Shown piece after piece: positions 12,568-48,030 of a stretch of 64,000 nucleotides of DNA (the first letter of the stretch is position 1; each line of letters opens with the position of its first letter). The notes below the pieces were generated by a model that was given only the letters and a program-made list of their open reading frames with translations, made no database searches and was not told where the DNA came from. The stretch is from Candidatus Latescibacterota bacterium (GTDB lineage: Bacteria; Latescibacterota; UBA2968; UBA8231): assembly GCA_965203355.1 (NCBI GenBank), contig OZ241889.1, positions 224,001 to 288,000 on the forward strand. Direction: 5' to 3'. The translations under genes were made by a program, and so were the position numbers.

Positions 12568-14345
12568 GCACCGAACTCAACAAAGAAGAAGAAATCCAGC
12601 AGCGCGCCTTCAACTTGGGGCTGACGCTGCAACTGTTGGGATACCTCAAGCCCCATCGCGGGCGCGTGATCCTCGCCTTTGGCACCATTGCCCTCGCCGC
12701 AGGCTTTGGCCAGGTCGGGCCCTATATCACCCAGGTAGCGGTTGACGACTACATCGCCGTCGGCGACTGGGCGGGGCTGCGGTGGATGATCGCGGCCTTT
12801 TTTGGCAGCGTCGCCGTGCAGTATGGTGCTCAATACGCCCAGACTTTGGTCGCCGGCATGATCGGTCAGCGCGTCATGTACGACATGCGCCGCGACCTGT
12901 TTGCCCACCTGCAAAAGCTGCCGCTGCGCTACTTCGACCGCACGCCGCTGGGCCGCATTATGACCCGCGCCACCAACGACATCGACGCCCTCAACGAGTT
13001 TTTCAGCGAGGGCGTCGTCTCGGTTTTTATGGATTTTTTTAGTTTGCTGGCCATCGTCGGCTTCATGGCCTATATCGACTTCGAGCTGGCCCTGATCTGC
13101 TGCACAGTGGTCCCGGTCATCGCCATCTCGACCTTCTACCTACAGGGCCTCGCCATGCGCGCCTATCGCGAATTGCGCACGCGCTTGGCGCGGATCAATG
13201 CCTATTTGCAGGAGAACATCACCGGCATGGAGGTGGTGCAGCTTTTCAACCGCCAGCAACGCAACTTGCGCGACTTCGACGCCGAGCACTTGCCCTATCG
13301 CCGCGCCGAGGACCGCGAAATCCACTGCTATGCCATCTTCTTCCCCTTTACCGAATTGCTCGGCACGGTTGGCATGGCACTGGTGCTGTGGTACGGGGCC
13401 TCTGACGCGATCGAAGGCCGCATTGAGCTGGGGGTGTTGGTGGCCTTTCTCCAGTACATCCGCCGCTTCTTCCGCCCGATCATGGACATCTCCGACCGCT
13501 ATGCCCTGCTGCAGAGCGCCATGGCCGCGTCTGAGCGCATCTTCGAGATGTTGGCCGTCCCCAGCGAACCCGGCGGCGGCCCGCCGCGCAATCGCGCCGC
13601 CAGCCGCGGCGGCGCGATTGAATTCCGCAACGTGTTCTTCAAGTACGATCCAAAAGCCGAAGACTGGATTCTCAAGGATGTCTCGTTTGAACTGCGGGCC
13701 GGGCAGAGTATGGCGATAGTCGGGGCTACCGGCTCGGGCAAAACTACCATCGTCAGCCTCCTCTGCCGCTTCTACGACATCCAGCGCGGGGAAATCCTCG
13801 TCGATGGCCGCGACGTGCGCCAGTGGCACGTGGCCGAATTGCGCCGCCGCATCAGCATCGTCCAGCAAGAGGTCTTCCTGTTTTCAGGGAATATCAGCGG
13901 CAACATCCGCCTCGGCAACGACGCCATTGACGAAGCCCAAGTCGAGCGCGCAGCCCGCTACGTCAACGCCGCGCCCTTTATCGAACGCCTCCCCCAAAGG
14001 TACGCCCACGCCGTGGCCGAAGGCGGCTCGACCCTGTCGGCCGGCCAGCGCCAGTTGTTGGCCTTTGCCCGCGCCCTGGCCTCCGACCCGGAAATTCTCG
14101 TCCTCGACGAGGCTACTTCCAGCATCGACACCGAGACCGAATTGCTCATCCAAGACGCCATCGCCAAGCTAATGAGCGAGCGCACTTCCATCGTCATCGC
14201 CCACCGCCTCTCCACCATCCGCAGTGCCGATCAGATCTTGGTGATGCACCGCGGCGAGGTGCGCGAGCGGGGCCGCCACGAGGAACTCTTGCTCCAAGAC
14301 GGCATCTACGCGCGCCTCTACCGCCTCAATTACGGCCGCTCTTAG
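12564..14345 (+). CDS. ABC exporter, fused permease/ATPase (MdlB-like half)
   Basis: GTG start overlapping the previous stop; GATGSGKT, LSAGQRQ, LDEATSSID, IAHRLST. Confidence 0.9.
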   Translation: MSTELNKEEEIQQRAFNLGLTLQLLGYLKPHRGRVILAFGTIALAAGFGQVGPYITQVAVDDYIAVGDWAGLRWMIAAFFGSVAVQYGAQYAQTLVAGMIGQRVMYDMRRDLFAHLQKLPLRYFDRTPLGRIMTRATNDIDALNEFFSEGVVSVFMDFFSLLAIVGFMAYIDFELALICCTVVPVIAISTFYLQGLAMRAYRELRTRLARINAYLQENITGMEVVQLFNRQQRNLRDFDAEHLPYRRAEDREIHCYAIFFPFTELLGTVGMALVLWYGASDAIEGRIELGVLVAFLQYIRRFFRPIMDISDRYALLQSAMAASERIFEMLAVPSEPGGGPPRNRAASRGGAIEFRNVFFKYDPKAEDWILKDVSFELRAGQSMAIVGATGSGKTTIVSLLCRFYDIQRGEILVDGRDVRQWHVAELRRRISIVQQEVFLFSGNISGNIRLGNDAIDEAQVERAARYVNAAPFIERLPQRYAHAVAEGGSTLSAGQRQLLAFARALASDPEILVLDEATSSIDTETELLIQDAIAKLMSERTSIVIAHRLSTIRSADQILVMHRGEVRERGRHEELLLQDGIYARLYRLNYGRS

Positions 14346-35896: not shown

Positions 35897-36246
35897 TTAC
35901 CACCCGCTGGCCGCGTAAATCGTCAGCAGCAATTCTGCATCGTCGAGCAATCGGTATTCCGGTTTCTTGCCGGACAGTCTTTCGCTGTTGCCCAAGATAA
36001 TAGGCACTCCCTCGCCGCGTTTGTCCATCAGAGTCCGGCGCTCTGTCGTCAGCCAAGGCGCGTCGGGCACCGCACACTTGGCCAGCAAGCTGCAAACCGC
36101 CTCATTCCGCACGGACTGGCGAGTGCTCTGGCGATAAATCATCCAGCCCGGCCATTGATACGGGTTGTTCGTCAAAGCGAATAAGGCGCGTCTGACTGCG
36201 CTGCTGGAACAGGCGGGCGAGAGGTTCTTTCGGGTTGTCGAACATG
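35897..36246 (-). pseudogene. Deleted/frameshifted remnant of an AlbA_2 + RecG-C-terminal (HATPase_c_4) type protein
   Basis: One frame gives LARLFQQRSQTRLIRFDEQPV; another gives RQSVRNEAVCSLLAKC...LMDKRGEGVPIILGNSERLSGKKPEY. These look like the middle and C-terminal segments of that family with the intervening part missing. Confidence 0.5.
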
Positions 36247-36430
36247 ATTTATGCCGCTTTATAGACATCATAGACATCGATATTCAACGAGTCATAGTAT
36301 ATACCTAAAAAATAAACTTAAACAATAATATATGTATTAGTAGCGAGACATAGTATGCAGCACTTGACGTAGGATCCATTTTAATCTAAATATTACCCGC
36401 TATGTTATCACAATTGGTAGAAAGTCGTCA

Positions 36431-38071
36431 ATGGGAATATTCTATGGTAGTGGTCCTGGACAGGATCTAGCTGAAGTCGTGGATCGTCTGAGCACGGACG
36501 AGTTGCACACTATATTGGGAAAAGACACCGTTTCGCTTATCGAAGCACTCGCTGGTGTCGAGGACAAAAGCGCAATGCTTCGCCGAATCACGACTGAAAT
36601 ACTACGCGATCGGGCAAACGATCTAATGGTGCGCAGCGATATCCGAGAGACTTGTTTCAACGCTATATCACCCGAAAAGCGAATCGAGCTAGCAAATCGA
36701 TTAGGTATTACGGATGTCGATACGCTTCGCACCATGAACCCGACCCAAGATGCCAAGACTTGGCAAGCCTTTCTAGGATTCTTCGGGATTGATGCACACG
36801 ACGCAGCTCCTTTTGCGATTGCCCCCCAACAAGAAACTATTCGGCCCGAATTTGGGTTGTTTCCTCATCAGCGGCTTATGGCCGACCATGTCTACGATGC
36901 CATTCAGGGAGGGCACGGGCGGGTTGTTCTCCACATGCCAACCGGTGCAGGTAAGACTAGAACAGCGATGCATATCGTTAGCCGATTTATGACTGCCTCG
37001 GAGCCGTCCGTTGTCGTTTGGTTAGCCACTAGCGCGGAGTTGCTTGATCAGGCGGCCGACGCCTTCCAAAGCACTTGGTCTCGGCTCGGCAACCGCGAGA
37101 TCGACATCCTGCGTTTCTGGGGAGATTATACCCCAAACCTGTCTAGAACTTCGGACGGCCTAATAATTGCCGGACTACAAAAAATGTATGCACTCAAGAC
37201 GAGGGACCATATCGATATTTTGCGGCTCGCGAAGTCGGTTAAGCTCGTCATTGTCGATGAGGCCCATCAAGCAATTGCGCCAAGCTATCGGGAAGTAATC
37301 GATATCTTGGCCGAAACTGGTAAAAATAATGCTCTCTTGGGTTTGACAGCGACACCGGGGCGTACATACTCAGATATTGAGGCCGACGAGCGGCTGTCTG
37401 ATTTTTTCGACGGACGAAAGGTCATGCTCAAAGTGGAGGGTCGGGACGACCCGATTTCTTTTCTTATAGAACAGGGGTATTTAGCGCATCCAACGTTCCG
37501 ACTCCTTGAGATCCAATCACCCTCTGAACTTAAGTCTCGTCTGAACAAAGTAAATGAAGGAGACGATTACGATTCGACATTACTAGAATTGCTCGCAGGA
37601 CAAGTAGGCCGAAATATCACCATTGTCGATGAAGTACGCCGCTTGATAGCAAAGGGGCACAAGAGGATAATACTGTTCGGTGCTTCCGTACGACACGCTG
37701 AGCTGTTAGCTATGGCTCTATTAGCGGTAGGAATTGATGGACGTGTTGTGACTGCAAACACAGGATCGACCGCCCGTACGCGAATCATCAGAGCATTTCG
37801 AGAATCTTCCGCAAAGCCTATCGTCCTGTGTAACTTCGGCGTCCTGACGACCGGATTTGACGCGCCGAACACAAGCGCAGCCGTGATTGCCCGACCAACT
37901 AAGTCTCTCGTGTTGTTCAGTCAGATGGTAGGCCGTGCGACACGGGGCCCCAAGGCCGGCGGCAACGAAACCTGCGAAATCTCCACTGTAATTGACACCG
38001 ACTTACCTGGATTCGGCGATATAGCCGAGGCTTTTACCAATTGGGAGGATGTGTGGCATGCCCCACGCTGA
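36431..38071 (+). CDS. SF2 DEAD/DEAH-box helicase (ResIII + HelicC)
   Basis: LFPHQ, HMPTGAGKT, VIVDEAH, LTATPGR, VLTTGFDAP, QMVGRATRG. Confidence 0.9.
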   Translation: MGIFYGSGPGQDLAEVVDRLSTDELHTILGKDTVSLIEALAGVEDKSAMLRRITTEILRDRANDLMVRSDIRETCFNAISPEKRIELANRLGITDVDTLRTMNPTQDAKTWQAFLGFFGIDAHDAAPFAIAPQQETIRPEFGLFPHQRLMADHVYDAIQGGHGRVVLHMPTGAGKTRTAMHIVSRFMTASEPSVVVWLATSAELLDQAADAFQSTWSRLGNREIDILRFWGDYTPNLSRTSDGLIIAGLQKMYALKTRDHIDILRLAKSVKLVIVDEAHQAIAPSYREVIDILAETGKNNALLGLTATPGRTYSDIEADERLSDFFDGRKVMLKVEGRDDPISFLIEQGYLAHPTFRLLEIQSPSELKSRLNKVNEGDDYDSTLLELLAGQVGRNITIVDEVRRLIAKGHKRIILFGASVRHAELLAMALLAVGIDGRVVTANTGSTARTRIIRAFRESSAKPIVLCNFGVLTTGFDAPNTSAAVIARPTKSLVLFSQMVGRATRGPKAGGNETCEISTVIDTDLPGFGDIAEAFTNWEDVWHAPR

Positions 38072-39917
38072 AGAAGCAGTTGACCAAGGAGATCTATTCG
38101 ACGCCCAGATCATTCCCGTGCGTCTAGCTATAACTGCGATGCGCGACTCTGGATATAAGAATACGGCCTATGCACTCGCGGAGTTGATCGACAATGCAGT
38201 GCAAGCCAATGCCTCAATGATTGAGGTATTCTGTATCGAAAAACGTGAGCCTCTTCAGACCCGTACACGCTCAAGGCTTTGGGAAATCGCAGTGCTCGAC
38301 AATGGATCGGGTATGGATCTCCAAGCGTTGTGGATGGCACTCCAGTTTGGTAACGGTACCCGCCTTAGTGATCGAACCGGTATTGGTCGCTTCGGCATGG
38401 GCTTACCGAATGCGTCAATCTCGCAAGCTAGGAGGGTGGACGTTTGGAGTTGGCAGAATGGGACGGCCAACGCGATAAAATCTTTCATTGACCTAGCGGA
38501 GATCGATAGGGGAGACATGAGCGATGTACCAAAGCCTGTGCATGACCCCGTGCCCGAGCGATGGAGGATGCTTTCCGATCACATCGGACAATGTGGGACC
38601 TTGGTGGTGTGGTCAAATCTAGACTTTGAAAGGCTAACTTGGAAGAGTAGTAAAAGTGCTCTAAGGCACACCGAAAGAATCGTAGGCCGTGTATATAGAC
38701 GCTTCATATCAGATAAAAAAGTAACAATTAGGCTATATGCGATGGAGGATGGTGCCGATGATAAGCCGATTTTCGATCGGGAAACCTCAGTAAATGATCC
38801 ACTTTACCTTGTTCCTGTGGAAGAATTACCCTCCCCATTCAGTAAGCAACCGATGTTCACGCATGTTTTTGATGATCCTTATGATATAGAGTATGATGGG
38901 AAGGTGCATACGGTAAAGACTCGCTATTCAGTAGCGTCTGAGGATACAATAACCGAAGCTGGAGTTGGTGATCGTGGACAAACGAAATATGGGAAACATG
39001 CCCAAGGAAACATGGGCGTTTCGGTCCTCCGTGCAGGGCGTGAGATCATGATCGACCATGGGTGGTGTATCGGTTATGATCCGAGAGAACGTTGGTGGGG
39101 TGCAGAAGTGGAATTCCCTCCCCAACTCGACGAGGTATTTGGAGTGACAAACAATAAACAAGCAGCGACCCACTTTGCCGAGTTGGCTACGATGGAATGG
39201 CAAGAACTCGCGGAAGAAGGTGAACAATTCATTGATGTCGTGAAACGCCTGAAAGAGGATAGAGACCCCCGTGGATGGTTACTCGGCCTGAGCGATAGCA
39301 TTAAGCGGAATCTCAAGAGATTGCGCGGGATAGTCAACGGACAAGGCGCGGGAAGACGGTCAAGCGGACGGACACGTCATGCCGTCGATGATGCCACGAA
39401 GACTGTCAATGAGAGATGGAAGGAGCGATCCAAGGAACAGCCTTTAGAAGAGGACAAAAAATCGCCAACGGAAAACGACCTTAACTATATTCGTACCGAT
39501 CTTACTAAAAATAAGAAGTACAGTGACTCGGATGCAGAAGAACTCGTATCTCTGATCAGAGATACGGAGCTGAAGGTGGTATTTCTCGAAGCAGACTTTC
39601 CCGATCCTTTTAATCTCTTTAATGTAGAGATGAAAGGAAATATTACAGAAATAACATTCAATAGGAAGCATCCTGCTTTTGACTATATCTTTGGTACGAT
39701 CAAGACCGCCGACGAGGACGTACGTAATCTTTCTCAAGAAGAAGTAATAGAACGCTTAACAAGAGCTGTCAACGCCGGAAAGATCATCTTCGCAGCGTGG
39801 GGACGTTATGAAAGAGAAGCAGGGGTTGATCGCGTTAAAGCTCTTCAGAAGGTTCGACTTGAATGGGGACAAATCGCGGCACAGTTTCTAGATCAGGACG
39901 ACAATCTCTCGCTATAG
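38058..39917 (+). CDS. GHKL/MORC-family ATPase (HATPase_c_3)
   Basis: AMRDSGYKNTAYALAELIDNA, VLDNGSGMD, GIGRFGMGLPNAS, GTLVVW; RBS GGAGGA upstream of MPHAEE; overlaps the helicase stop. Confidence 0.9.
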   Translation: MPHAEEAVDQGDLFDAQIIPVRLAITAMRDSGYKNTAYALAELIDNAVQANASMIEVFCIEKREPLQTRTRSRLWEIAVLDNGSGMDLQALWMALQFGNGTRLSDRTGIGRFGMGLPNASISQARRVDVWSWQNGTANAIKSFIDLAEIDRGDMSDVPKPVHDPVPERWRMLSDHIGQCGTLVVWSNLDFERLTWKSSKSALRHTERIVGRVYRRFISDKKVTIRLYAMEDGADDKPIFDRETSVNDPLYLVPVEELPSPFSKQPMFTHVFDDPYDIEYDGKVHTVKTRYSVASEDTITEAGVGDRGQTKYGKHAQGNMGVSVLRAGREIMIDHGWCIGYDPRERWWGAEVEFPPQLDEVFGVTNNKQAATHFAELATMEWQELAEEGEQFIDVVKRLKEDRDPRGWLLGLSDSIKRNLKRLRGIVNGQGAGRRSSGRTRHAVDDATKTVNERWKERSKEQPLEEDKKSPTENDLNYIRTDLTKNKKYSDSDAEELVSLIRDTELKVVFLEADFPDPFNLFNVEMKGNITEITFNRKHPAFDYIFGTIKTADEDVRNLSQEEVIERLTRAVNAGKIIFAAWGRYEREAGVDRVKALQKVRLEWGQIAAQFLDQDDNLSL

Positions 39918-39935
39918 GATTTGGAGAAGTAGGTT

Positions 39936-40844
39936 ATGATCGCGGACGGCGAGCGCCTGAAGGAGCTCTTAGAGAAAGCTGAGCACCGAGTAATTTTGTG
40001 CGCTCCATTCATTAAAGCGGCAGTGCTACGGACTATTCTATTAGTCGTGCCCGAGACAGTACCAGTAAAGATTGTCACGAGGTGGCGAGCAACCGAAATC
40101 GCTGTAGGAATAAGCGACCTTGAGGTGCTACAGATTGCGACCGACAGGCCGCACACTGAGCTTTGGCTATTGGATGATCTCCATGCCAAACTCTACATTG
40201 CAGATGATAAGTGCCTTGTGGGATCTGCCAATTTGACGGCGAGTGCTTTAGGCTGGTCAAAAAACAGCAATATAGAACTTCTGATTTCAGCAAAGTCAAC
40301 TGATTCTGATATCGCCTTTCTTTTAGAGCAACTTGAAGCAGCGGAGCTTGCAACTGTCGCGACTCGTGCAAAAATTGAGGCAATGGTAGCTAATCTCAAA
40401 GAGACAAGACTCGAAGAAGGGGAAGACATGACGGATGAAAGTTCAGTCCGTCAATTGGCTTGGCTGCCCCGTTGTGCAGCCCCAGACAAGCTCTATGAGA
40501 TTTATCGAAACTCGGAGACAACAGTTGTAGTGGAGGGCACTAAGGAGGATGGCCTTGCAGATCTAAGGGATCTGCAGATTCGACCTGGGCTCCCGGCAAT
40601 GACTTTCAAAGACAACGTACGGAACACCCTTCTCTTGATGCCTGCATTCGCTCGAATCATTGAGGATGTGCCCCAAAGTCTTACGGATGCCGAAGGAACT
40701 GCACGGGTCGAGGAAGCTCGTCCTGACTTGGATGAGCAAGATGCGAGAGAACAATGGCGTATTGTACGGGACTGGATTGAGAGCTTCTTTGGAGACATGT
40801 TTGAGGTAGCTCCAGCATCGTTTGTCACTCGTCTGAGATCATGA
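39936..40844 (+). CDS. Phospholipase D-like (single HKD) nuclease-domain protein
   Basis: ILCAPFIK, LHAKLYIAD, VGSANLT, NIE. Confidence 0.85.
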   Translation: MIADGERLKELLEKAEHRVILCAPFIKAAVLRTILLVVPETVPVKIVTRWRATEIAVGISDLEVLQIATDRPHTELWLLDDLHAKLYIADDKCLVGSANLTASALGWSKNSNIELLISAKSTDSDIAFLLEQLEAAELATVATRAKIEAMVANLKETRLEEGEDMTDESSVRQLAWLPRCAAPDKLYEIYRNSETTVVVEGTKEDGLADLRDLQIRPGLPAMTFKDNVRNTLLLMPAFARIIEDVPQSLTDAEGTARVEEARPDLDEQDAREQWRIVRDWIESFFGDMFEVAPASFVTRLRS

Positions 40845-40972
40845 TATTAATATCAAAAAAAAGTATCTAGTTGTCTTCGAGTACCGAACTGTCCTACCCA
40901 TCATCTAAATCCCCTCGTAGTCCAATTGTGTTTATAGCTTATAGCCTCCGTCAAATTCAAAGGCCCCTTCTC

Positions 40973-41776
40973 TCAAAGATGACAAATAGCGCACCCGTCC
41001 AAGTCCTCCCCAGCGGGCACCTCATAGCGCTTTTCTAACTTTTCGACGTCCTCTAGGGAGCGTCCATTTACCCAAGTATACTTTCTTCCACTCTCCTCTT
41101 TCTCGTAGTCCTTGGCCTTCTCAAACAATTCGGGATGGTTCTCCTTGAGTCCCTGCCACTCTCCAATCTGTTGATAGAAGCAAAAATAACACCCCGATCT
41201 TGAACGCCAGCGATAGTAAGGGGGGAGTCCGAGACCTGATTGATCGAGTAGTCCCTTCACTTCTTCTAAGCCGATACCATCCTCTTTGAACGGATATATA
41301 GGAATGATATTATTCGCCTCAGAGAGCATAACTGGTTTGCGCTGCTGATAACCTGTGCGCTGCTCGTCTGCCCGAATGCCTATATAGGTATAGGCGCGAT
41401 CATTTCCTATTTCTCGCTCAAAGGGTTTAATCTTCAACACACGCGTACACCAACGGGCCTGTGGGCTAGGGAGAAAGCCGCCGTAGTACTCCTTGAGATA
41501 AACATCGAACGGCTTGCGATCTTCCTTTTCTCGGATACCCAACATCCCAAGAACGTTTAAGCGCTTGACCTCAACACTAAAAATCGCCTCAAATCGTTCA
41601 ATGTATTCGTAGGTCTCCTTCAGTTCCGCTCCCGTATCGCAGAATATGAACTCAAGGTCTAGCTGCGGATAGTTTTCCAAGAGGTAAATGCCGAGCGCGG
41701 TGGAATCTTTACCGCCCGAAAATGAAACCACATGGCGAGCATCGGTATCCTGAAGCGCATCCTTCATCAGAGTCAT
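40973..41776 (-). CDS. sspD: PAPS-reductase-family ATP pyrophosphatase, SspD/DndC-like
   Basis: SFSGGKDS PP-loop, FCDTGAE, RWCTRVLK, GIRADE, RSRSGCYFCFYQ, C-terminal CAICH; last gene of an sspABCD-like operon. Confidence 0.8.
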   Translation of the reverse strand: MTLMKDALQDTDARHVVSFSGGKDSTALGIYLLENYPQLDLEFIFCDTGAELKETYEYIERFEAIFSVEVKRLNVLGMLGIREKEDRKPFDVYLKEYYGGFLPSPQARWCTRVLKIKPFEREIGNDRAYTYIGIRADEQRTGYQQRKPVMLSEANNIIPIYPFKEDGIGLEEVKGLLDQSGLGLPPYYRWRSRSGCYFCFYQQIGEWQGLKENHPELFEKAKDYEKEESGRKYTWVNGRSLEDVEKLEKRYEVPAGEDLDGCAICHL

Positions 41777-41782
41777 GGCCTG

Positions 41783-44700
41783 CTAACCTCCTGCCAATTC
41801 GGAAATCCCGTCCCGCTCGTTGGTCCGGGATTGAAGTTGGTCAATCAACTCGGCGCGAGCATCCGGCGCAAGCATCCGGTCGAGCTTGCTGAACAGATAC
41901 TTAATGCGGCGTTCGAGAAGGGGAGCCGCCGAGGGGCTTATTATTTCTGCCTCAAGGAGTCCCTGTTCTGCTCTCGTGACGACCTCTCGAAGGCGATCTG
42001 CAAATTCTCGCAGGCTCGCATCATCCCAACGATCAAGCCCTTTCCCAAGCAAGATCATACTCAACGCACGTGCAAAAGAAGCCTCCGTATAACGGCCATT
42101 TGTTGCTTCAGCCGCACGGGTAAGAATGGCACGAGAGGTGGCGTCAAGATCAGACGAGGAAATCGCTTCATCACTGAAACATGCCGACCACTCTTTTGCC
42201 CGGTGTAGCGCATTGCCGGGAGAATTAGGAGCAAGAGCTAAGAAGTCGTGGATTATGGCGATGGCCTTTGCAGTATAACCATCAACGATGCCTTCTAATT
42301 CTTGGCGAAGAGCGGCCACGCCCTCTAAAGTGTCGTCATCCGGCAAAAGAGTACCCGTCAGTTTGGGAAACTTCTCCAAGGCCAAGACAGCGGGATCGTT
42401 TGTTGTGCGAAGAACGGCTTGGAAGGAACGAGCCTCGGGGCCGACTTCGCGAGTGGTTAGTGCTGGAGTAGGTAACTGGGCCTTCCAGCTTTCAAGAGCA
42501 TCATAGAATTGGCGGATCAAGTCGCCATGATGAGGCGGCATCCCACCGAACTGTTCAATTAAGTCTCGTAAGTACCTAGTTTGGAACGCATCAACCTCCA
42601 GAACATCAACTGAGAATTCGTCTGGAGTCGAGCAGAAATCTTCAATCTCACTAGCGAGGATGTCGGCGAGATATGAACCATGACGTCGAATGACAACAGC
42701 CCGACCAAAGGCTTGTAGCCCCGCCGCAACTAGGATGGGCAGTGTGGCTTTACGGGTTCCATGCGGTGGTCTTTCAAGTGATTCAAGAAAAGCTGCCGGT
42801 GATTTCTCGGAGCTAGGCGTAGTAAAAAAATCTTTAAGCTGCTGCCAAAGCTCCGCTAGGCCACGCTCTCCGATCTCGGCTGGTGCCGCCCAACCCCAGC
42901 CCGTGTCTTTCGTCCGGTACAGTCCTGTGCGCTCTAGCACCGTTCGGTACAAAGCAACATCCGGTGTCGTAGCTTCTATATCAAAACCAAGATGTGGTTT
43001 CCCAGATCGTTCCAGAATTCCTAGGATCAGCTTTTTGCGTGCATTCACCATTGGTCGGCTGATTTTTTCCCTAACGATGAGTTCGTTGTTTATGCGGGGA
43101 GTACTTGGGAACCGTTCATCGGCGAGTTCGGACAACCTCTCGCGCAACTCGCCTTCGTTGCGGACCGATAACTCTTGTCCTTTAGAAAACCAAGTGAGGC
43201 CGTTCGAGCTAGGGCTGACAATCCGCGACACAATGTGCGCTAAGTGTTCTTGGGCAGCATCAATCATGTACTTAATCTCAGGCTCTATGAAGGGATCAGT
43301 CGCAATAAGCTCGTAATTTTGTCCCAAGCTCCTTAATGCCATAATCTCTAATGCAATATCCAGCGTTTGCGTCGGATGCTCTGGGACTACAAGAATAACC
43401 CCTGAGTCAAGCGAAGATAGCTCCCGCACGAAAGAGCGTAGCTCAAGGATTTCTTCGCTCGTCTCGACAAGGCAATAAACAACGCGCCCGTCTTCACCAG
43501 CCCCCAACTGCAACAGTGGATGCCCTACACCTTCTCGCAGCAGATCGTTTGCAGATGCGTATGCACCGGCGAAAAAACGTCGAATGCGGTTCTTCACGTT
43601 ATGGGCAACGGGTCGCCAATAAGGTGGCGGATGCTCTTTTGACAGAATCTCAACAATGTTGAGTTCCAAGCTAATGCGGAGCTTTTCTTCCTCCAAATGG
43701 GCGCGTAGATCAACATCGGTTCCATGCCAAACCGAGATGTCGTCGTTGCGTTGTCGGTAGAGCAGTAGGTTTCGGTCGATCAGGCCATCAATGGTTTGCT
43801 CAATAACAGCATGGGAGGAATCATTGAACTCAGTGACAGCAAACCTGAGAACATCTTTGCGGACGCGCACACGTTCACCAGAAATGCCAAGCCCAAGAAG
43901 GGCCGCCGCCGCTATGATTTCGCTTTCTTCCTTAGTAGCTGCCTTTGAGAGAGCACTTTCGCTTTCAAGCCATCTACGATGTGTCCCGCCGATTCCCGTA
44001 TCGGCTTCCATTGCCTCTGAAAAATATCGGTACAGATCATGCAGAGTTTGCGACTGACCTAGATCGGCCTCTCGCAAGAAGGAAAAGACCGTTCGCTCAT
44101 TTTGTGCGAGCCGAGCCGCTACCCGAGGTAGCATGTGAAGAGCGGCCGGATGCAAAGGGTAAGCACTTCTTAGAGTTTGTGTGAGCTTCCCCTTATTTCC
44201 AAACGACTCAAACAAGCCCAATTCCAGCGCTCTTTCCGCTATCTTCTCACTAGCTTTAAGGGTCAGAGGCCGACGAATATCGCGCGATTGTTCGATCACT
44301 GAGGCGATCAATTCGTACATCTCCCGACTGTCTTCGACATAGCGGACCAATCCGAAGCGGCCCTCAATTTTCCGCCAACTGTTGCGTGCGGCTTGGCTCA
44401 GATTGCCAACATAGTGAAAGAAGGTCTGGTGTAATAGGATAGTGAATGTCGCGGTAGGTTCATCCTGTCGAGAAGCCCATTCAGCGATCTGTTGGACTTC
44501 GGAAAGAACTTCCGCATGTCCAGAAGAAGCAAGGGTTTCAAGATGCCGACCAAACTCATCCCATATTATTGAAATACGGTCGCGGCCTTGTGTATGTGCC
44601 CTTTGAGAGATTGCGTCTAAAATGTGAAGAATCTCGCCGTTGTGCCGACGTGGCTTCCGAAAATATCTGAGTTGCTGTTTCGCCTGCTCAATAATAGCAC

Positions 44701-45064
44701 CAGCAAGATCAGGTTGGTACCCTTCAAGGACGATAGTTAGCCCTTGGGTGCGACTTTTTATGCGAGTTTTAACAATAGCGCTAAGTTGTTTATCAACAGC
44801 GGCGAGACGTTCGCTAATTACGGAGAGCACCTTTCGCGCTGAGGGTGAGTTCTCGACCGCCATGGTCGCTATTCCGGTAGCCAGCGATTTCCCAGAACCA
44901 TACGCAGCGACTACCATCGAAGCGGCAGCAGGCTTTCCATCAAGTACCGCTTGGATGACTTGGGTACTCTTCTTAGTGGGATAGAAATGTGAAAATCGCT
45001 CGGGATGGTCCCTGTCGAGGAGCAGACTGATCGACTTAAAAAAACGGTCTGTTGTACCTATCAT
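41783..45064 (-). CDS. sspC: Large P-loop ATPase, SspC-like
   Basis: Walker A AAYGSGKS, Walker B IIWDEFG, WRKIEGRF, YPLHP, AQNERTVFSFL; ATGA-coupled to the DUF4007 gene. Confidence 0.75.
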   Translation of the reverse strand: MIGTTDRFFKSISLLLDRDHPERFSHFYPTKKSTQVIQAVLDGKPAAASMVVAAYGSGKSLATGIATMAVENSPSARKVLSVISERLAAVDKQLSAIVKTRIKSRTQGLTIVLEGYQPDLAGAIIEQAKQQLRYFRKPRRHNGEILHILDAISQRAHTQGRDRISIIWDEFGRHLETLASSGHAEVLSEVQQIAEWASRQDEPTATFTILLHQTFFHYVGNLSQAARNSWRKIEGRFGLVRYVEDSREMYELIASVIEQSRDIRRPLTLKASEKIAERALELGLFESFGNKGKLTQTLRSAYPLHPAALHMLPRVAARLAQNERTVFSFLREADLGQSQTLHDLYRYFSEAMEADTGIGGTHRRWLESESALSKAATKEESEIIAAAALLGLGISGERVRVRKDVLRFAVTEFNDSSHAVIEQTIDGLIDRNLLLYRQRNDDISVWHGTDVDLRAHLEEEKLRISLELNIVEILSKEHPPPYWRPVAHNVKNRIRRFFAGAYASANDLLREGVGHPLLQLGAGEDGRVVYCLVETSEEILELRSFVRELSSLDSGVILVVPEHPTQTLDIALEIMALRSLGQNYELIATDPFIEPEIKYMIDAAQEHLAHIVSRIVSPSSNGLTWFSKGQELSVRNEGELRERLSELADERFPSTPRINNELIVREKISRPMVNARKKLILGILERSGKPHLGFDIEATTPDVALYRTVLERTGLYRTKDTGWGWAAPAEIGERGLAELWQQLKDFFTTPSSEKSPAAFLESLERPPHGTRKATLPILVAAGLQAFGRAVVIRRHGSYLADILASEIEDFCSTPDEFSVDVLEVDAFQTRYLRDLIEQFGGMPPHHGDLIRQFYDALESWKAQLPTPALTTREVGPEARSFQAVLRTTNDPAVLALEKFPKLTGTLLPDDDTLEGVAALRQELEGIVDGYTAKAIAIIHDFLALAPNSPGNALHRAKEWSACFSDEAISSSDLDATSRAILTRAAEATNGRYTEASFARALSMILLGKGLDRWDDASLREFADRLREVVTRAEQGLLEAEIISPSAAPLLERRIKYLFSKLDRMLAPDARAELIDQLQSRTNERDGISELAGG

Positions 45065-45951
45065 CGTCCTGCTCCAAGGTAGTACTTCTTCAGCCAACCA
45101 GACAGCGACAACCCTCTTACTCTGACGAAGCGTTCACCTCCAAGAGTATGCGTGTGAATCAGCTCTGTCCCGAGTGCTTCTTCAGCCTCACCTAGGAGAT
45201 TAATCAACGCATCCGCATCTAAGGCCAATGTTCTTCCTGGACATTTAGGCTTGGCTATAGCTTCCGATAAATTGAGATCAAAAGAGTCGCCGCTATCTTC
45301 GTCTTCTGGCAATGCTTTAGCGAAGGCGTATCCAATGATCTCGAACGGAATAGCTTTTTTGCGGCGATTTAGCTGATAAGTGTCTGACTCACGCAGATAC
45401 GTGATCAGCCCTAGTAACCGGAACGGACACTCATGGCCGTCTTCGGGATCCTCCTGAGTGGGAGGGATCGGTGTCGCGTAACTTGACAATAGACACGCTA
45501 TATCCCGTGAGATCGTCTTTGGACTAGGGAGGCGTTGTCCCTGGACAACAAGTTGCCGCCGGAGGTCTTCCGAACAGCGGATACGGTCGAAGCGCCCATG
45601 CGAGAACTGATTAAAGAACCAATACCATGCAACGGCATCGATCCCACATGTTACCAAATTGACGTGTAACACCCACCAAGTGCCGAGGCGCAAGAAATAG
45701 GGGTCGTATTGCTGAATGGTTCTGCCGATAGGGGTGATGGCCGATGAACCACTGCGACCGTTTTTCGTTGTTTCTACAAGACCTGTTACCTGTAGCCAAT
45801 GCCGAATCGACTTGGCCATATTGCGACCAACGCCTAGGTAATCGGATACGAATGGGTCCTTAAAAGCGTCCGCGTCTTCCTTGAGAAGCTCGAGGCCCTT
45901 AACGAGCCAATCTTCTCGCACCGCGAAAGTTTCGTGTCCGCCAAATCTCAC
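45061..45951 (-). CDS. sspB: DUF4007-family protein, SspB-like nickase
   Basis: FGGHETFAVREDWLVKG, LGVGRNMAKSIRHWL, DPYF...TWWVLH, WYWFFN, CPFRLLGLI. Confidence 0.82.
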   Translation of the reverse strand: MRFGGHETFAVREDWLVKGLELLKEDADAFKDPFVSDYLGVGRNMAKSIRHWLQVTGLVETTKNGRSGSSAITPIGRTIQQYDPYFLRLGTWWVLHVNLVTCGIDAVAWYWFFNQFSHGRFDRIRCSEDLRRQLVVQGQRLPSPKTISRDIACLLSSYATPIPPTQEDPEDGHECPFRLLGLITYLRESDTYQLNRRKKAIPFEIIGYAFAKALPEDEDSGDSFDLNLSEAIAKPKCPGRTLALDADALINLLGEAEEALGTELIHTHTLGGERFVRVRGLSLSGWLKKYYLGAGR

Positions 45952-45957
45952 AGTTGC

Positions 45958-47103
45958 TTACCCAGTCAGCCGTTCCAGTGCAAGTAAGCGTTGATAGACT
46001 AAACAGACCGCTTCTGCGGCCTGCTTGGCTTCTTCAAGCGAGTTGAGCACCGAAAAAGAGAACCGAACGCTTGCGAAGGCTTGATCTTCTGTTAGTCCCA
46101 TGGCAAGCAATACATGAGAAGGTTCGGGGCGCTGGCTCACGCAGGCAGAGGTCTGCGAGCAAATGATACCCACCTGATCAAGTTGGGCCATAAGAGCCAT
46201 GCCTTCTACGGACGAAAAATGAATGTTAGAGGTATTGGGAACGCGATTACTGCGATCTCCATTAATATGAAGCCCTAGCGCAGACCCTGCAAGATGGTCC
46301 TCAAATACTCCTCTTAGGGTCTCAAGATGTGTTATCGCCTCGTTTAGCTGGCGAGAGCGGACATCGGCAGCTATACCGAAACCAATGATCCCTGGCAGAT
46401 TTTCGGTGCCTGGGCGCATCCCACTTTCCTGATCTCCGCCGAAGAGCAAGGGAGAGAGTAGGTTTTCTTGCTTGCTGCAAATCGCGCCAATTCCCTTCGG
46501 ACCGTGAATCTTGTGTGCGGTGAACGTCATAAAATCAATGGGAAGATCGGGCAACGAGATTGGAACGCGACCAATTGCTTGCGCCGCATCGACATGAAAC
46601 GGCACTAGACGCCGGCGGCAAATTTCACCTAGTGCCTCAATCGGTTGTACGGTGCCGGTTTCGCTATTTGCCCACTGAACGGACACAAGGGTCGCTGGCT
46701 CCTCTAGAGCAACTTCAAGGCTATGTGGACTGACCCGACCAAGCTGATCTACTGGTAGAATAGTGACCTCTACGTCCGCATCTTGCAGAGCTTGGGCCGT
46801 CTTCAAGACAGACGAGTGTTCAATCTCCGTCGTGACGAGCCGGGTTCCCTGCTTATGTGAACAGATGCTTTGAAGAACGAGGTTATTGGCCTCCGTTCCC
46901 CCCGAAGTGAACAGAATCTGTTCCGACTCTGAACCAACGAGACTAGCGACGCGATGGCGGGCCTCGGACAGGGCCTCGCGAGCATCCGCGCCAAGTTGAT
47001 GCGGACTCGATGGATTCCCGTACCTAGTCGTCATCAACTCGACGACCGCATCGACCACTTCCGGCAAGGAGCGCGTCGTGGCGTTGTTGTCCAAGTAAAT
47101 CAC
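45958..47103 (-). CDS. sspA: Cysteine desulfurase (IscS/DndA/SspA-like)
   Basis: IYLDNNATT, GNPSSPH, FTSGGTEAN, HVDAAQ, TAHKIHGPKG, SQTSAC; first gene of the operon. Confidence 0.85.
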   Translation of the reverse strand: MIYLDNNATTRSLPEVVDAVVELMTTRYGNPSSPHQLGADAREALSEARHRVASLVGSESEQILFTSGGTEANNLVLQSICSHKQGTRLVTTEIEHSSVLKTAQALQDADVEVTILPVDQLGRVSPHSLEVALEEPATLVSVQWANSETGTVQPIEALGEICRRRLVPFHVDAAQAIGRVPISLPDLPIDFMTFTAHKIHGPKGIGAICSKQENLLSPLLFGGDQESGMRPGTENLPGIIGFGIAADVRSRQLNEAITHLETLRGVFEDHLAGSALGLHINGDRSNRVPNTSNIHFSSVEGMALMAQLDQVGIICSQTSACVSQRPEPSHVLLAMGLTEDQAFASVRFSFSVLNSLEEAKQAAEAVCLVYQRLLALERLTG

Positions 47104-47882
47104 TTCAGCTTTCCTCTAGCCCTCACCCCCGGCGGCATAAAAAACTCGTACTGCTCCGGCGTGCCGTAGCCTTCCATCTCCGTCAGCCGCACCCCGGTGC
47201 TGTTGAGCGCCGCCTCGACGATCCGCTTGTTAAAGGTGCTGACGTTTTCCTCGGCCAGATAGTCGCCCACCGGCATCCACAGACACTCGGCAATCTCGTC
47301 CTCTTGGATGCTAATCTCCGTGCTCAGAGGGCGCAGGCGGCAGACGAAGTAAATATCCGACTTGCCATAGCGGTAGCCGTGCCAGTGGCGAAAGCAGACC
47401 AGCGCGTCGAACTCGGTCTCGACTCCGGTCTCTTCGGAGACTTCGCGCACCACGGCTTCGGCCAAGTGCTCGCCCGCGTGGAGCGCACCCCCGGGCAACT
47501 TGTAGCGCGGCGGGCCGGGCGCACGTCGATGGTACTTTTCGCTGACCACTAGCAGTTCCCGCGCCTCGTTGAGCACCACGCCGCCCGCGCCGATATAGTG
47601 CGAAGCGTGGGCCGGCACATAAGCACCTTCTTCGAGTTGCAAGGTCATCATTAGATAGCCATCGCCGCTGTGGTGGAATGTAAAACCGACTTCCGCCGCT
47701 ACCGGGATCAACGCCGCCTTGGCAATCGGCACTTCCAGCCAGACGACCCGGTAGCCTTCGCCTGCCCAAGCCGCCAGCGAAACGCGCAGCCGCTCGGCAA
47801 ACGCCGCCGGGTTTGGGTCGAGAGCCTCTGGTTTGGGAATGATGCCGCCGAATGGATTGGTTGTTGCCGCAATAGGTTCCAT
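47100..47882 (-). CDS. Nudix hydrolase (NUDT6-like, with N-terminal domain)
   Basis: SLAAW..EG.RVVWL, GFTFHH, HYIGAGG, LPGG...AVVREVSEETG, FRHWH; host-like high GC. Confidence 0.85.
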   Translation of the reverse strand: MEPIAATTNPFGGIIPKPEALDPNPAAFAERLRVSLAAWAGEGYRVVWLEVPIAKAALIPVAAEVGFTFHHSGDGYLMMTLQLEEGAYVPAHASHYIGAGGVVLNEARELLVVSEKYHRRAPGPPRYKLPGGALHAGEHLAEAVVREVSEETGVETEFDALVCFRHWHGYRYGKSDIYFVCRLRPLSTEISIQEDEIAECLWMPVGDYLAEENVSTFNKRIVEAALNSTGVRLTEMEGYGTPEQYEFFMPPGVRARGKLK

Positions 47883-48030
47883 AGCCCGCCTTCCGCAATG
47901 GCCGCTAGTGATAGCAAACCCCACTTGGCGTGTCAACCCGCCCAGCTTGGCCCGCTGCCAAACCGTACCCTCGGTGGAGAGCACCGCCTTAGCACCTTAT
48001 ATTGAGATATTCCACATAGAAAGGATCAAC

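Follow-up and report, generated by a model that had tools for sequence, protein, structure and literature searches.

A helicase, MORC-type ATPase and PLD nuclease gene triplet linked to ssp phosphorothioation genes: a candidate restriction module of Ssp defence

Genes of the Latescibacterota island

The window analysed here is a stretch of 64,000 nucleotides of a Candidatus Latescibacterota bacterium (assembly GCA_965203355.1, contig OZ241889.1, positions 224,001 to 288,000) and shows, at positions 36431-40844, three intact plus-strand open reading frames (ORFs), overlapping or closely spaced, which encode a superfamily 2 (SF2) helicase/translocase, a MORC-type GHKL ATPase and a single-HKD (PLD/Nuc-type) nuclease. 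The triplet lies beside sspABCD, the genes for single-strand phosphorothioation (PT) of DNA, whose backbone then carries sulfur. The same association with ssp is found in many phyla, and the triplet is probably the restriction (effector) half of the Ssp phosphorothioate defence.

The helicase gene (36431-38071, plus strand) encodes a protein of 546 amino acids (aa) with Pfam matches to ResIII (1.3e-25), DEAD and Helicase_C. Its stop codon (38069-38071) is inside the MORC gene, whose longest ORF (38049-39917, plus strand) encodes 622 aa and matches HATPase_c_3 (1.5e-19). Translation of the MORC protein probably begins at the second ATG (38058), with a GGAGG about 10 nt upstream; homologues have 617-619 aa. 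This start yields 619 aa and an overlap of 14 nt with the helicase gene. The nuclease gene (39936-40844, plus strand; 302 aa; PLDc_2, 7.8e-08) follows after a gap of 18 bp that contains GGAG. Three genes, the helicase/MORC overlap, the 18-bp gap and intact catalytic motifs, given below, had all been claimed in a preliminary description of the window, and all were found in the ORFs and their translations.

The triplet and sspABCD are the only contents of a low-GC island of about 10.8 kb (36280-47100), which shows a guanine and cytosine (GC) fraction of 0.48-0.52 vs 0.61-0.64 in the flanks. The remainder of the island is sspD-C-B-A, on the strand opposite to the triplet: sspD (40973-41776, minus strand), encoding a PAPS-reductase-like sulfur transferase (PADLOC SspD, 2.9e-89; Pfam PAPS_reduct, 3e-13); sspC (41783-45097, minus), encoding a BrxC-like ATPase (PADLOC SspC, 1.9e-145); sspB (45061-45951, minus), encoding a DUF4007 protein (PADLOC SspB, 4.2e-112; Pfam DUF4007, 1.3e-59); and sspA (45958-47103, minus), encoding a cysteine desulfurase (PADLOC SspA, 2.9e-127; Pfam Aminotran_5, 3.4e-73). 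By gene content, with sspB, sspC and sspD beside candidate effector genes, the locus fits a broadly defined Ssp phosphorothioate defence system. The PLD gene and sspD are convergent (tail-to-tail) and separated by 128 bp; the scan shows no terminator-like hairpin between them (fold z-score 0.41), and no tRNA gene is present in the whole window.

Linkage of the triplet to ssp genes in other genomes

Relatives of the MORC protein number in the thousands; the best 120 are 63-100% identical, contain about 618 aa and are named at most 'ATP-binding protein'. In a set with one genome per prokaryotic species, which shows 290 MORC relatives, the best 80 were fetched, 78 loci were kept and these were scored by tblastn with the window proteins as queries. 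The helicase-MORC-PLD order is kept in 68 of the 78 loci, so the conservation in other genomes that the preliminary description had named as a check on its proposal is present. At least two of sspB, sspC and sspD are within 10 kb of the triplet in 62 of the 78 loci, and 58 show both the conserved order and nearby ssp genes; several of the loci that miss out are on contigs whose end is no more than a few hundred bases from the match. The ssp genes are upstream on the same strand in 41 loci, downstream and convergent, as in the window, in 19, and otherwise placed in two. Of the 62 loci with a measurable distance, 42 place SspD closer than 500 bp to the triplet. The loci span Latescibacterota, Alpha- and Gammaproteobacteria, Acidobacteriota, Chloroflexota, Bacteroidota, Actinomycetota, Armatimonadota, Bdellovibrionota, Thermodesulfobacteriota and one Cenarchaeum archaeon; at least ten phylum-level groups, together with plasmids, carry the triplet family. 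On plasmid A of Trichormus variabilis ATCC 29413, the triplet is inside the ssp cluster, between sspC/sspD, which are accompanied by a gene encoding a DndB-domain protein, and a cysteine desulfurase gene. On plasmid p.BB_2 of Pannonibacter phragmitetus, sspB, sspC, sspD and the helicase, MORC and PLD genes are co-directional, with the desulfurase gene divergent just upstream, and are annotated in a row as DUF4007, ATP-binding protein, PAPS-reductase-family protein, DEAD/DEAH helicase, ATP-binding protein and phospholipase D family protein. Nitrococcus mobilis Nb-231 is among the organisms with a triplet locus (L058).

Five 'orphan' triplets have full flanks and no ssp genes within 10 kb, and in four of these five genomes, those of loci L017 and L039 among them, sspB/C/D are located elsewhere; the fifth, that of L026, shows no SspC match. 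Locus L001, the closest relative of the window, belongs to a Latescibacterota metagenome-assembled genome (MAG); its triplet is 79-91% identical to that of the window and two upstream genes, Ldh_2 and 2-hydroxyacid dehydrogenase, are common to both. An IS3-type transposase gene (12815-13678, minus strand) follows the PLD gene of L001, and the ssp genes (L079) are 1.9 Mb from the triplet and 90-97% identical to those of the window (SspC 91%, SspD 97%). This genome also holds a second, divergent ssp cluster (L083).

The background rate was taken from two even whole-genome samples, searched with the MORC-family profile and with an SspD model at a stringent cut-off (E <= 1e-40, at which none of 14 control genomes is positive). 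The Gammaproteobacteria, the class of the Nitrococcus genome, show seven SspD-positive genomes among 400 and two with the MORC family, both SspD-positive and with the genes adjacent. The Alphaproteobacteria, the class of the Erythrobacter genome, show ten SspD-positive genomes among 401 and five with a full-length MORC-family protein, all SspD-positive and on the same contig. With the two seed genomes left out, Ssp is present in 15 of 799 genomes, a background of about 2%, and the full-length MORC family in five of the 15 Ssp-positive and none of the 784 Ssp-negative genomes. One SspD-negative genome of the Alphaproteobacteria has a partial MORC match covering the GHKL domain only (profile positions 19-221, E 1.5e-33), and one genome (G257) is unscored.

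The three triplet genes co-evolve, with Mantel r values of 0.92, 0.92 and 0.90 from pairwise distances in the 43 loci that contain all five proteins; within the Ssp cassette of the same loci, SspB and SspD show r 0.86. The triplet thus behaves as one cassette, which has recombined with different Ssp cassettes: SspC of the window is only 22-27% identical to the SspC of loci whose triplet is 70-75% identical. In locus L005 the separate PLD gene is absent and another HKD domain, its HxK...GSxN motif intact, is fused in frame at the N-terminus of an orthologous helicase (72% identical), which supports that nuclease and helicase act together. An apparent MORC-PLD fusion in L066 is an ORF-extension artefact of two separate genes, and longer fused PLD forms were not found at E <= 1e-10 among proteins of 530-2000 aa, which is weak evidence by the tool's own rating.

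Several loci contain additional genes. A gene encoding a DndB-domain protein (about 420 aa) and one encoding a familyless protein of about 173 aa are between sspD and the helicase gene in L004, L048, L053, L055, L068 and L073; DndB-like genes are also present at L031, L029 and L052, with Pfam DndB at about 1e-27 where scanned (L048, L031, L029 and L052). In L029 only the MORC gene comes after the DndB-like gene; the helicase and PLD genes are absent. Another pair between ssp and the triplet encodes a protein of about 800 aa with a HEF_HK domain besides two GHKL domains (HATPase_c_3, HEF_HK, HATPase_c) and a partner of about 650 aa; it is present at L051 (3736-8078), L065, L077 and L078 (12801-17041), and also at L076 (4878-8279). 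The partner shows no Pfam or PADLOC match in L051 and L078, which were scanned, and the pair was judged by ORF size and position in the other loci. A third pair, a SIR2_2 protein and a GmrSD_N/NsnA-like protein (PADLOC NsnA, 3.9e-30 and 1e-33), is between ssp and the triplet in L044 (6562-8630, minus strand) and L059 (6516-8416, plus strand). In L060, a Cenarchaeum MAG, helicase and MORC genes without a detectable PLD gene adjoin an SspD-like gene. At the left edge of the window island, an ORF of 126 aa (35897-36277, minus strand) shows a weak HATPase_c_4 match (1.2e-05), below the Pfam cut-off; HATPase_c_4 is the C-terminal part of RecG-like/AlbA_2-type regulators, and this ORF may be the relic of a gene where the insertion begins or ends. 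At the other edge, a NUDIX hydrolase gene (47100-47984, minus strand; Nudix_hydro and NUDIX domains), on the strand of sspA, runs 4 nt into the start of that gene and has a weak PADLOC match to the candidate PDC-S07 (2.8e-07). The GC content rises there, so the NUDIX gene may belong to the core genome and not to the island.

Features of the helicase, MORC-type and PLD proteins

The helicase contains the motifs PTGAGKT, VDEAHQ and QMVGRATRG; among 33 sequences, G172, G174, K175 and T176 of Walker A, D276-E277-A278-H279, and Q498, R502 and R505 of motif VI are invariant. Its family profile, built from 33 homologues, is nearest in the PDB to RadD (6jde, 4e-40), followed by SauUSI (7clg, 3e-15) and a type I R subunit (3h1t, 3.5e-15). 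The best PADLOC match is PbeA (3.1e-21), limited to the helicase core (model positions 246-616 of 672). The N-terminal part of about 135 aa is family-specific, with nothing above 0.79 in a protein-atlas look-up of residues 1-140, and the C-terminal tail is strongly conserved.

The MORC protein contains ELIDNA, DNGSG and GRFGMG, and its invariant residues among 36 sequences are E42, D45, N46, D81, G83, G85 and G108-G115. Pfam covers residues 40-163 only, with HATPase_c_3. In the AlphaFold2 (AF2) model, with a mean predicted local distance difference test score (pLDDT) of 80.9, residues 16-430 align by VIA-align with SMCHD1 (6mw7; Z 20.2, root-mean-square deviation (rmsd) 4.4, 333 residues aligned), MORC3 (5ix1, Z 19.2), MutL (7p8v, Z 18.1) and MORC2 (5of9, Z 17.6); Foldseek concurs, and the family profile matches MORC2 at 5.6e-07. 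By this model, the protein up to residue 430 or so is a GHKL ATPase plus S5 transducer module, and it thus shows the features of MORC-type GHKL proteins, an N-terminal GHKL domain with motifs I-III and then an S5-fold transducer. The label 'MORC-type' is used rather than 'MORC' since the motif that separates true MORCs from paraMORC1-5 is not spelled out in the text passages of Iyer et al. (2008; PMC2292703). Residues 445-619 are modelled as helices together with a small sheet and a long hairpin of helices, with pLDDT 60-80; they have no fold match in the VIA-align search with the full model, and the protein-atlas look-up of residues 445-622 gives unnamed clusters only (0.95, probably its own family). 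The preliminary description had left the whole C-terminal half unrecognised, which now applies to the last 175 residues or so. The best PADLOC match is MzaB, at the GHKL N-terminus (8.4e-15). A MORC homologue of 620 aa, 63% identical, is filed under Chromera velia in the eukaryotic protein set, where bacterial contamination is likelier than a eukaryotic gene.

The PLD protein contains HAKLYIAD and GSANLT, and Pfam covers residues 8-122 only, with PLDc_2. Its AF2 model (pLDDT 89.3) shows a Nuc-type HKD nuclease domain in residues 1-150, a disordered linker and a C-terminal domain in residues 172-302. The top structural match of the N-terminal domain by VIA-align is SauUSI (7clg; Z 16.2, rmsd 2.1, 140 residues aligned), followed by Nuc (1bys, Z 14.3), BfiI (2c1l, Z 13.6) and the NgoAVII R-protein (4rct, Z 12.0), and Foldseek concurs. 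Its Nuc fold and the single HxK(x)4D(x)6GSxN motif in each chain place the protein in the HKD/PLD superfamily; H83, K85, S97, N99 and E114 are invariant among 32 sequences. Nuc and BfiI, which also have one HKD motif per chain, dimerise to form one active site, and by analogy the PLD protein would have to pair to build its own. The best PADLOC matches, ZacB and DrmC, cover the PLD domain (2.4e-11 and weaker).

The C-terminal domain, in which W176, P178, P183, D209 and W280 are invariant among the same 32 sequences, aligns by VIA-align with 3bhw (Z 8.0), the N-terminal part of N.BspD6I (2ewf, Z 7.4), BrxA (7zge, Z 7.0), SspB (6juf, Z 5.6) and the FokI recognition domain (2fok, Z 5.6), moderate scores that are close to the single-match noise level stated for VIA-align. 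These scores were taken seriously because the full-domain matches fall in one structural group. The last 85 residues or so also align with many ArsR-type winged-helix repressors (Z 5-6.5). The Aravind laboratory has described, in the main texts, a winged helix-turn-helix (wHTH) module shared by FokI, SspB and DndG (PMC10853773) and by BrxA (PMC12839542). In the model, residues 172-302 thus resemble, at the level of the fold, a tandem winged-helix DNA-binding module of the BrxA/SspB/FokI type. These C-terminal 130 aa or so had been called unrecognised in the preliminary description, which is superseded by the model; the winged-helix fold that it had suggested looking for by structure prediction is predicted in this tail.

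Restriction role, rival explanations and known systems

By the fold of its nuclease domain, the PLD protein is nearest to nucleases of ATP-dependent restriction (SauUSI, BfiI, the NgoAVII R-protein), which supports a restriction role. In such a defence, SspABCD would mark host DNA with single-strand backbone sulfur, and the three triplet proteins would form, or work as, one ATP-driven machine. The SF2 helicase would translocate along DNA; the MORC-type GHKL-S5 ATPase would dimerise in an ATP-dependent manner, clamp or loop DNA and license cleavage, in parallel with the licensing of MutH and UvrD by MutL; and the PLD protein would bind DNA through its tandem winged-helix tail, with pairing building the active site. 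DNA free of PT would most likely be cut or nicked, and host DNA bearing PT spared. From the conserved order, the overlapping genes and the tight co-evolution we infer a single translocase-clamp-nuclease machine, as the preliminary description had done; a structure prediction of full-length MORC paired with the PLD protein has scores (0.19 and 0.00, vs a mark of 0.32) that speak neither for nor against a complex. It seems about evenly balanced whether the triplet is a third non-homologous and widespread Ssp restriction module, in which clamp, translocase and nuclease would read a single-strand sulfur mark as MutL, UvrD and MutH do with hemimethylation. The preliminary description had also proposed that the unrecognised domains may read a backbone mark. 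A tie of the triplet to a backbone mark, and not to methylation, gains support from the linkage of the triplet to sspABCD, in cis and in trans, in many phyla; the assignment of sulfur reading to those particular domains did not find the same support.

Several results weigh against a restriction role tied to Ssp. The locus set was gathered by similarity to the MORC protein, which means that the counts of linkage in cis do not come from random sampling, and the pattern of co-occurrence fits a module that requires PT and a module that is toxic without PT equally. Two Chloroflexota loci, L024 and L026, contain helicase and MORC genes only, among metabolic genes, and neither PLD nor ssp genes were found there; the L026 genome shows no SspC match and no PLD gene at the locus. 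No entry for a sulfur-binding domain (SBD), the fold with which PT-reading proteins such as ScoMcrA bind the sulfur, is present among the 50 listed matches of the PLD or MORC full models. Profile-profile comparison with hhalign shows no homology to SspB for either the PLD family or the helicase family (probability 0.2% in both cases), and therefore the PLD tail resembles SspB and BrxA in fold only. The triplet and the Ssp cassette correlate weakly (Mantel r 0.14-0.41), and the correlation with SspB is no stronger for the DNA-binding tail of the PLD protein (r 0.30) than for its catalytic domain (r 0.28); therefore nothing indicates a shared sequence specificity. Because the triplet and Ssp reassort freely and the tail shows no additional covariation with SspB, the triplet would rather read sulfur or a very general feature than a cassette-specific sequence, as these comparisons suggest.

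The direction of the effect of PT is likewise something we infer. Shielding of DNA by PT, the arrangement of SspFGH and DndFGH, has a modest edge over PT switching the triplet on, because the architectural relatives of the triplet attack unmarked DNA. The second direction, in which PT sites of the host would stimulate the ATPases and the activated complex would then nick or cut incoming DNA, as SspE does, is the strongest of the rival explanations and is nonetheless rather unlikely. The triplet alone would then be inert and not toxic, and a module useless without PT would likewise vanish from Ssp-negative genomes. The persistence of the triplet 1.9 Mb from ssp in one genome is in line with it, as is the pairing with very divergent Ssp cassettes, which is expected if sulfur itself and not sequence is read; SspE operates in this way according to the introduction of the SspFGH paper (PMC8092258), and DndB-domain proteins adjoin the triplet in several loci. 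Against it, the nearest relatives, SauUSI, the NgoAVII/CglI R-protein with its helicase and the type I R subunits, attack by translocation and collision and not by activation through their own mark, and no domain with a known PT-sensing fold is among the listed matches of the PLD model.

It is improbable that the triplet is an independent MORC-helicase-nuclease defence system with another trigger, which merely shares islands with Ssp. Operons with MORC, SFII helicase and nuclease genes do occur with methylases or alone, according to the text passages of Iyer et al. (2008; PMC2292703), and a few loci without nearby ssp genes are found amid defence genes, L017 by GmrSD and a UvrD/PD-(D/E)XK pair and L039 by ArdA. 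However, ssp is present elsewhere in four of the five 'orphan' genomes, these two included, SspD is at the short distance given above in two fixed orientations, the triplet is embedded within the ssp operon on one plasmid, and the full-length family is absent from all 784 Ssp-negative genomes at an Ssp background of about 2%. Least probable is a maintenance or repair module for the modification, with MutL/UvrD/MutH-like processing of nicks or misplaced PT left by SspBCD. In its favour, MutL is as near a match of the GHKL-S5 fold as MORCs are (Z 18.1 vs 19.2), the best PDB match of the helicase is a repair helicase, RadD, and, according to passages of a 2025 review (PMC12707154), ATPase components that nick DNA work with the final sulfur donor. 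Against it, ten of the 15 sampled Ssp-positive genomes have no triplet, which is therefore dispensable for modification, and the location in a horizontally acquired low-GC island and the transposases, ArdA and GmrSD that neighbour other loci are typical of defence cargo.

As a restriction module of Ssp, the triplet was compared with the systems already known. SspE and SspFGH are likewise encoded by effector genes beside sspBCD, and SspFGH, in the passages that describe it (PMC8092258), consists of three genes as well, all of them required, and damages non-PT DNA. In the same source, SspF is a Walker A protein and SspH is FtsK/SpoIIIE-like; the triplet shows no FtsK-like domain and no match named SspF, SspG or SspH in Pfam, PADLOC or NCBIfam, and is not SspFGH. 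SspE joins a DUF262 (DndB/ParB-like) NTPase and a DUF1524 HNH nuclease in one protein according to the passages of the 2025 review (PMC12707154); DUF262 and DUF1524 are absent from all three triplet proteins and no PADLOC match is named SspE, so the triplet is not SspE either. PbeA and SauUSI, both fusions of an HKD nuclease with an SF2 helicase, have in common with the triplet that these two activities would act together. In the main text of PMC10853773, PbeA is an HKD and SF2 protein tied to Dnd phosphorothioation, PbeB is small, PbeC is an ABC ATPase of the CxC type and PbeD is DndE-like. The triplet differs from PbeABCD and SauUSI in that its nuclease is encoded by a separate gene and has its own DNA-binding tail, a MORC-type ATPase gene is located in between and the partner is Ssp, not Dnd; the helicase core alone matches PbeA and the island ORFs show no PbeB, PbeC or PbeD match, so it is not PbeABCD.

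The passages on CglI and NgoAVII show, as in the triplet, a PLD nuclease with a DNA-binding domain in the R-protein and a separate translocating DEAD-family helicase/ATPase. Both differ from it in the use of a DNA methyltransferase, a helicase with a Z1 domain and the lack of a GHKL component. Their DNA-binding domain is presumably B3-like, whereas the tail of the triplet nuclease is a predicted tandem winged helix. No methyltransferase domain is present in the eight island ORFs scanned with Pfam, as the preliminary description had stated, and the triplet is not a type I/III restriction-modification system. MutL-MutH-UvrD, which combines a GHKL-S5 clamp and a helicase with a latent nuclease reading a mark on one strand only, would be an analogy for the mechanism only: the triplet has no MutS-like sensor, its nuclease fold is unrelated to MutH and its context is defence. 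The prokaryotic MORC/paraMORC operons of Iyer, Abhiman and Aravind (2008; PMC2292703) show a GHKL and S5 ATPase by an SFII helicase and a nuclease, HKD included, and these authors proposed DNA looping between recognition and cleavage sites by analogy with MutL. In the text passages of that paper the operons are tied to DNA methylases and an Ssp link is absent. Nitrococcus mobilis (L058), Erythrobacter (L054/L059) and Roseovarius (L051) are common to our locus set and to a figure legend of that paper, and the triplet operon itself may be drawn in the figure. MORC-helicase-nuclease operons as predicted restriction systems have therefore been known since 2008, and what is new, as far as these passages of PMC2292703 go, is the link of the triplet to Ssp. 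Within the main texts covered by the literature search, no paper linking a GHKL/MORC-helicase-PLD module to Ssp was found; 'MORC' and 'GHKL' do not occur in PMC10853773, nor 'MORC', 'MutL' and 'HATPase' in PMC12839542. The PT restriction branches given in passages of the 2025 review (PMC12707154) are dndFGH/sspFGH, sspE and pbeABCD only.

Current annotation of the triplet proteins is limited to 'DEAD/DEAH box helicase', 'ATP-binding protein' and 'phospholipase D family protein'; NCBIfam contains no specific model for any of them, and the PADLOC 2023 models do not recognise them as Ssp parts. In the passages of PMC8092258, 2,211 of 2,678 examples of sspBCD have neither sspE nor sspFGH; its authors proposed undiscovered partners and raised the question of solitary systems. 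The triplet, found in five of the 15 Ssp-positive genomes sampled in the Alpha- and Gammaproteobacteria, is a concrete candidate for the partner of such orphan sspBCD, and its presence on the sequenced Trichormus and Pannonibacter plasmids and in Nitrococcus mobilis, all from non-pathogenic bacteria in culture, makes the question directly testable. If the restriction role holds, the triplet would explain part of the large orphan sspBCD fraction, prokaryotic relatives of the eukaryotic MORC silencers would be tied to an epigenetic mark of the DNA backbone, and bacterial MORC-type ATPases would be a tractable model of how GHKL clamps couple the reading of a mark to the processing of DNA.

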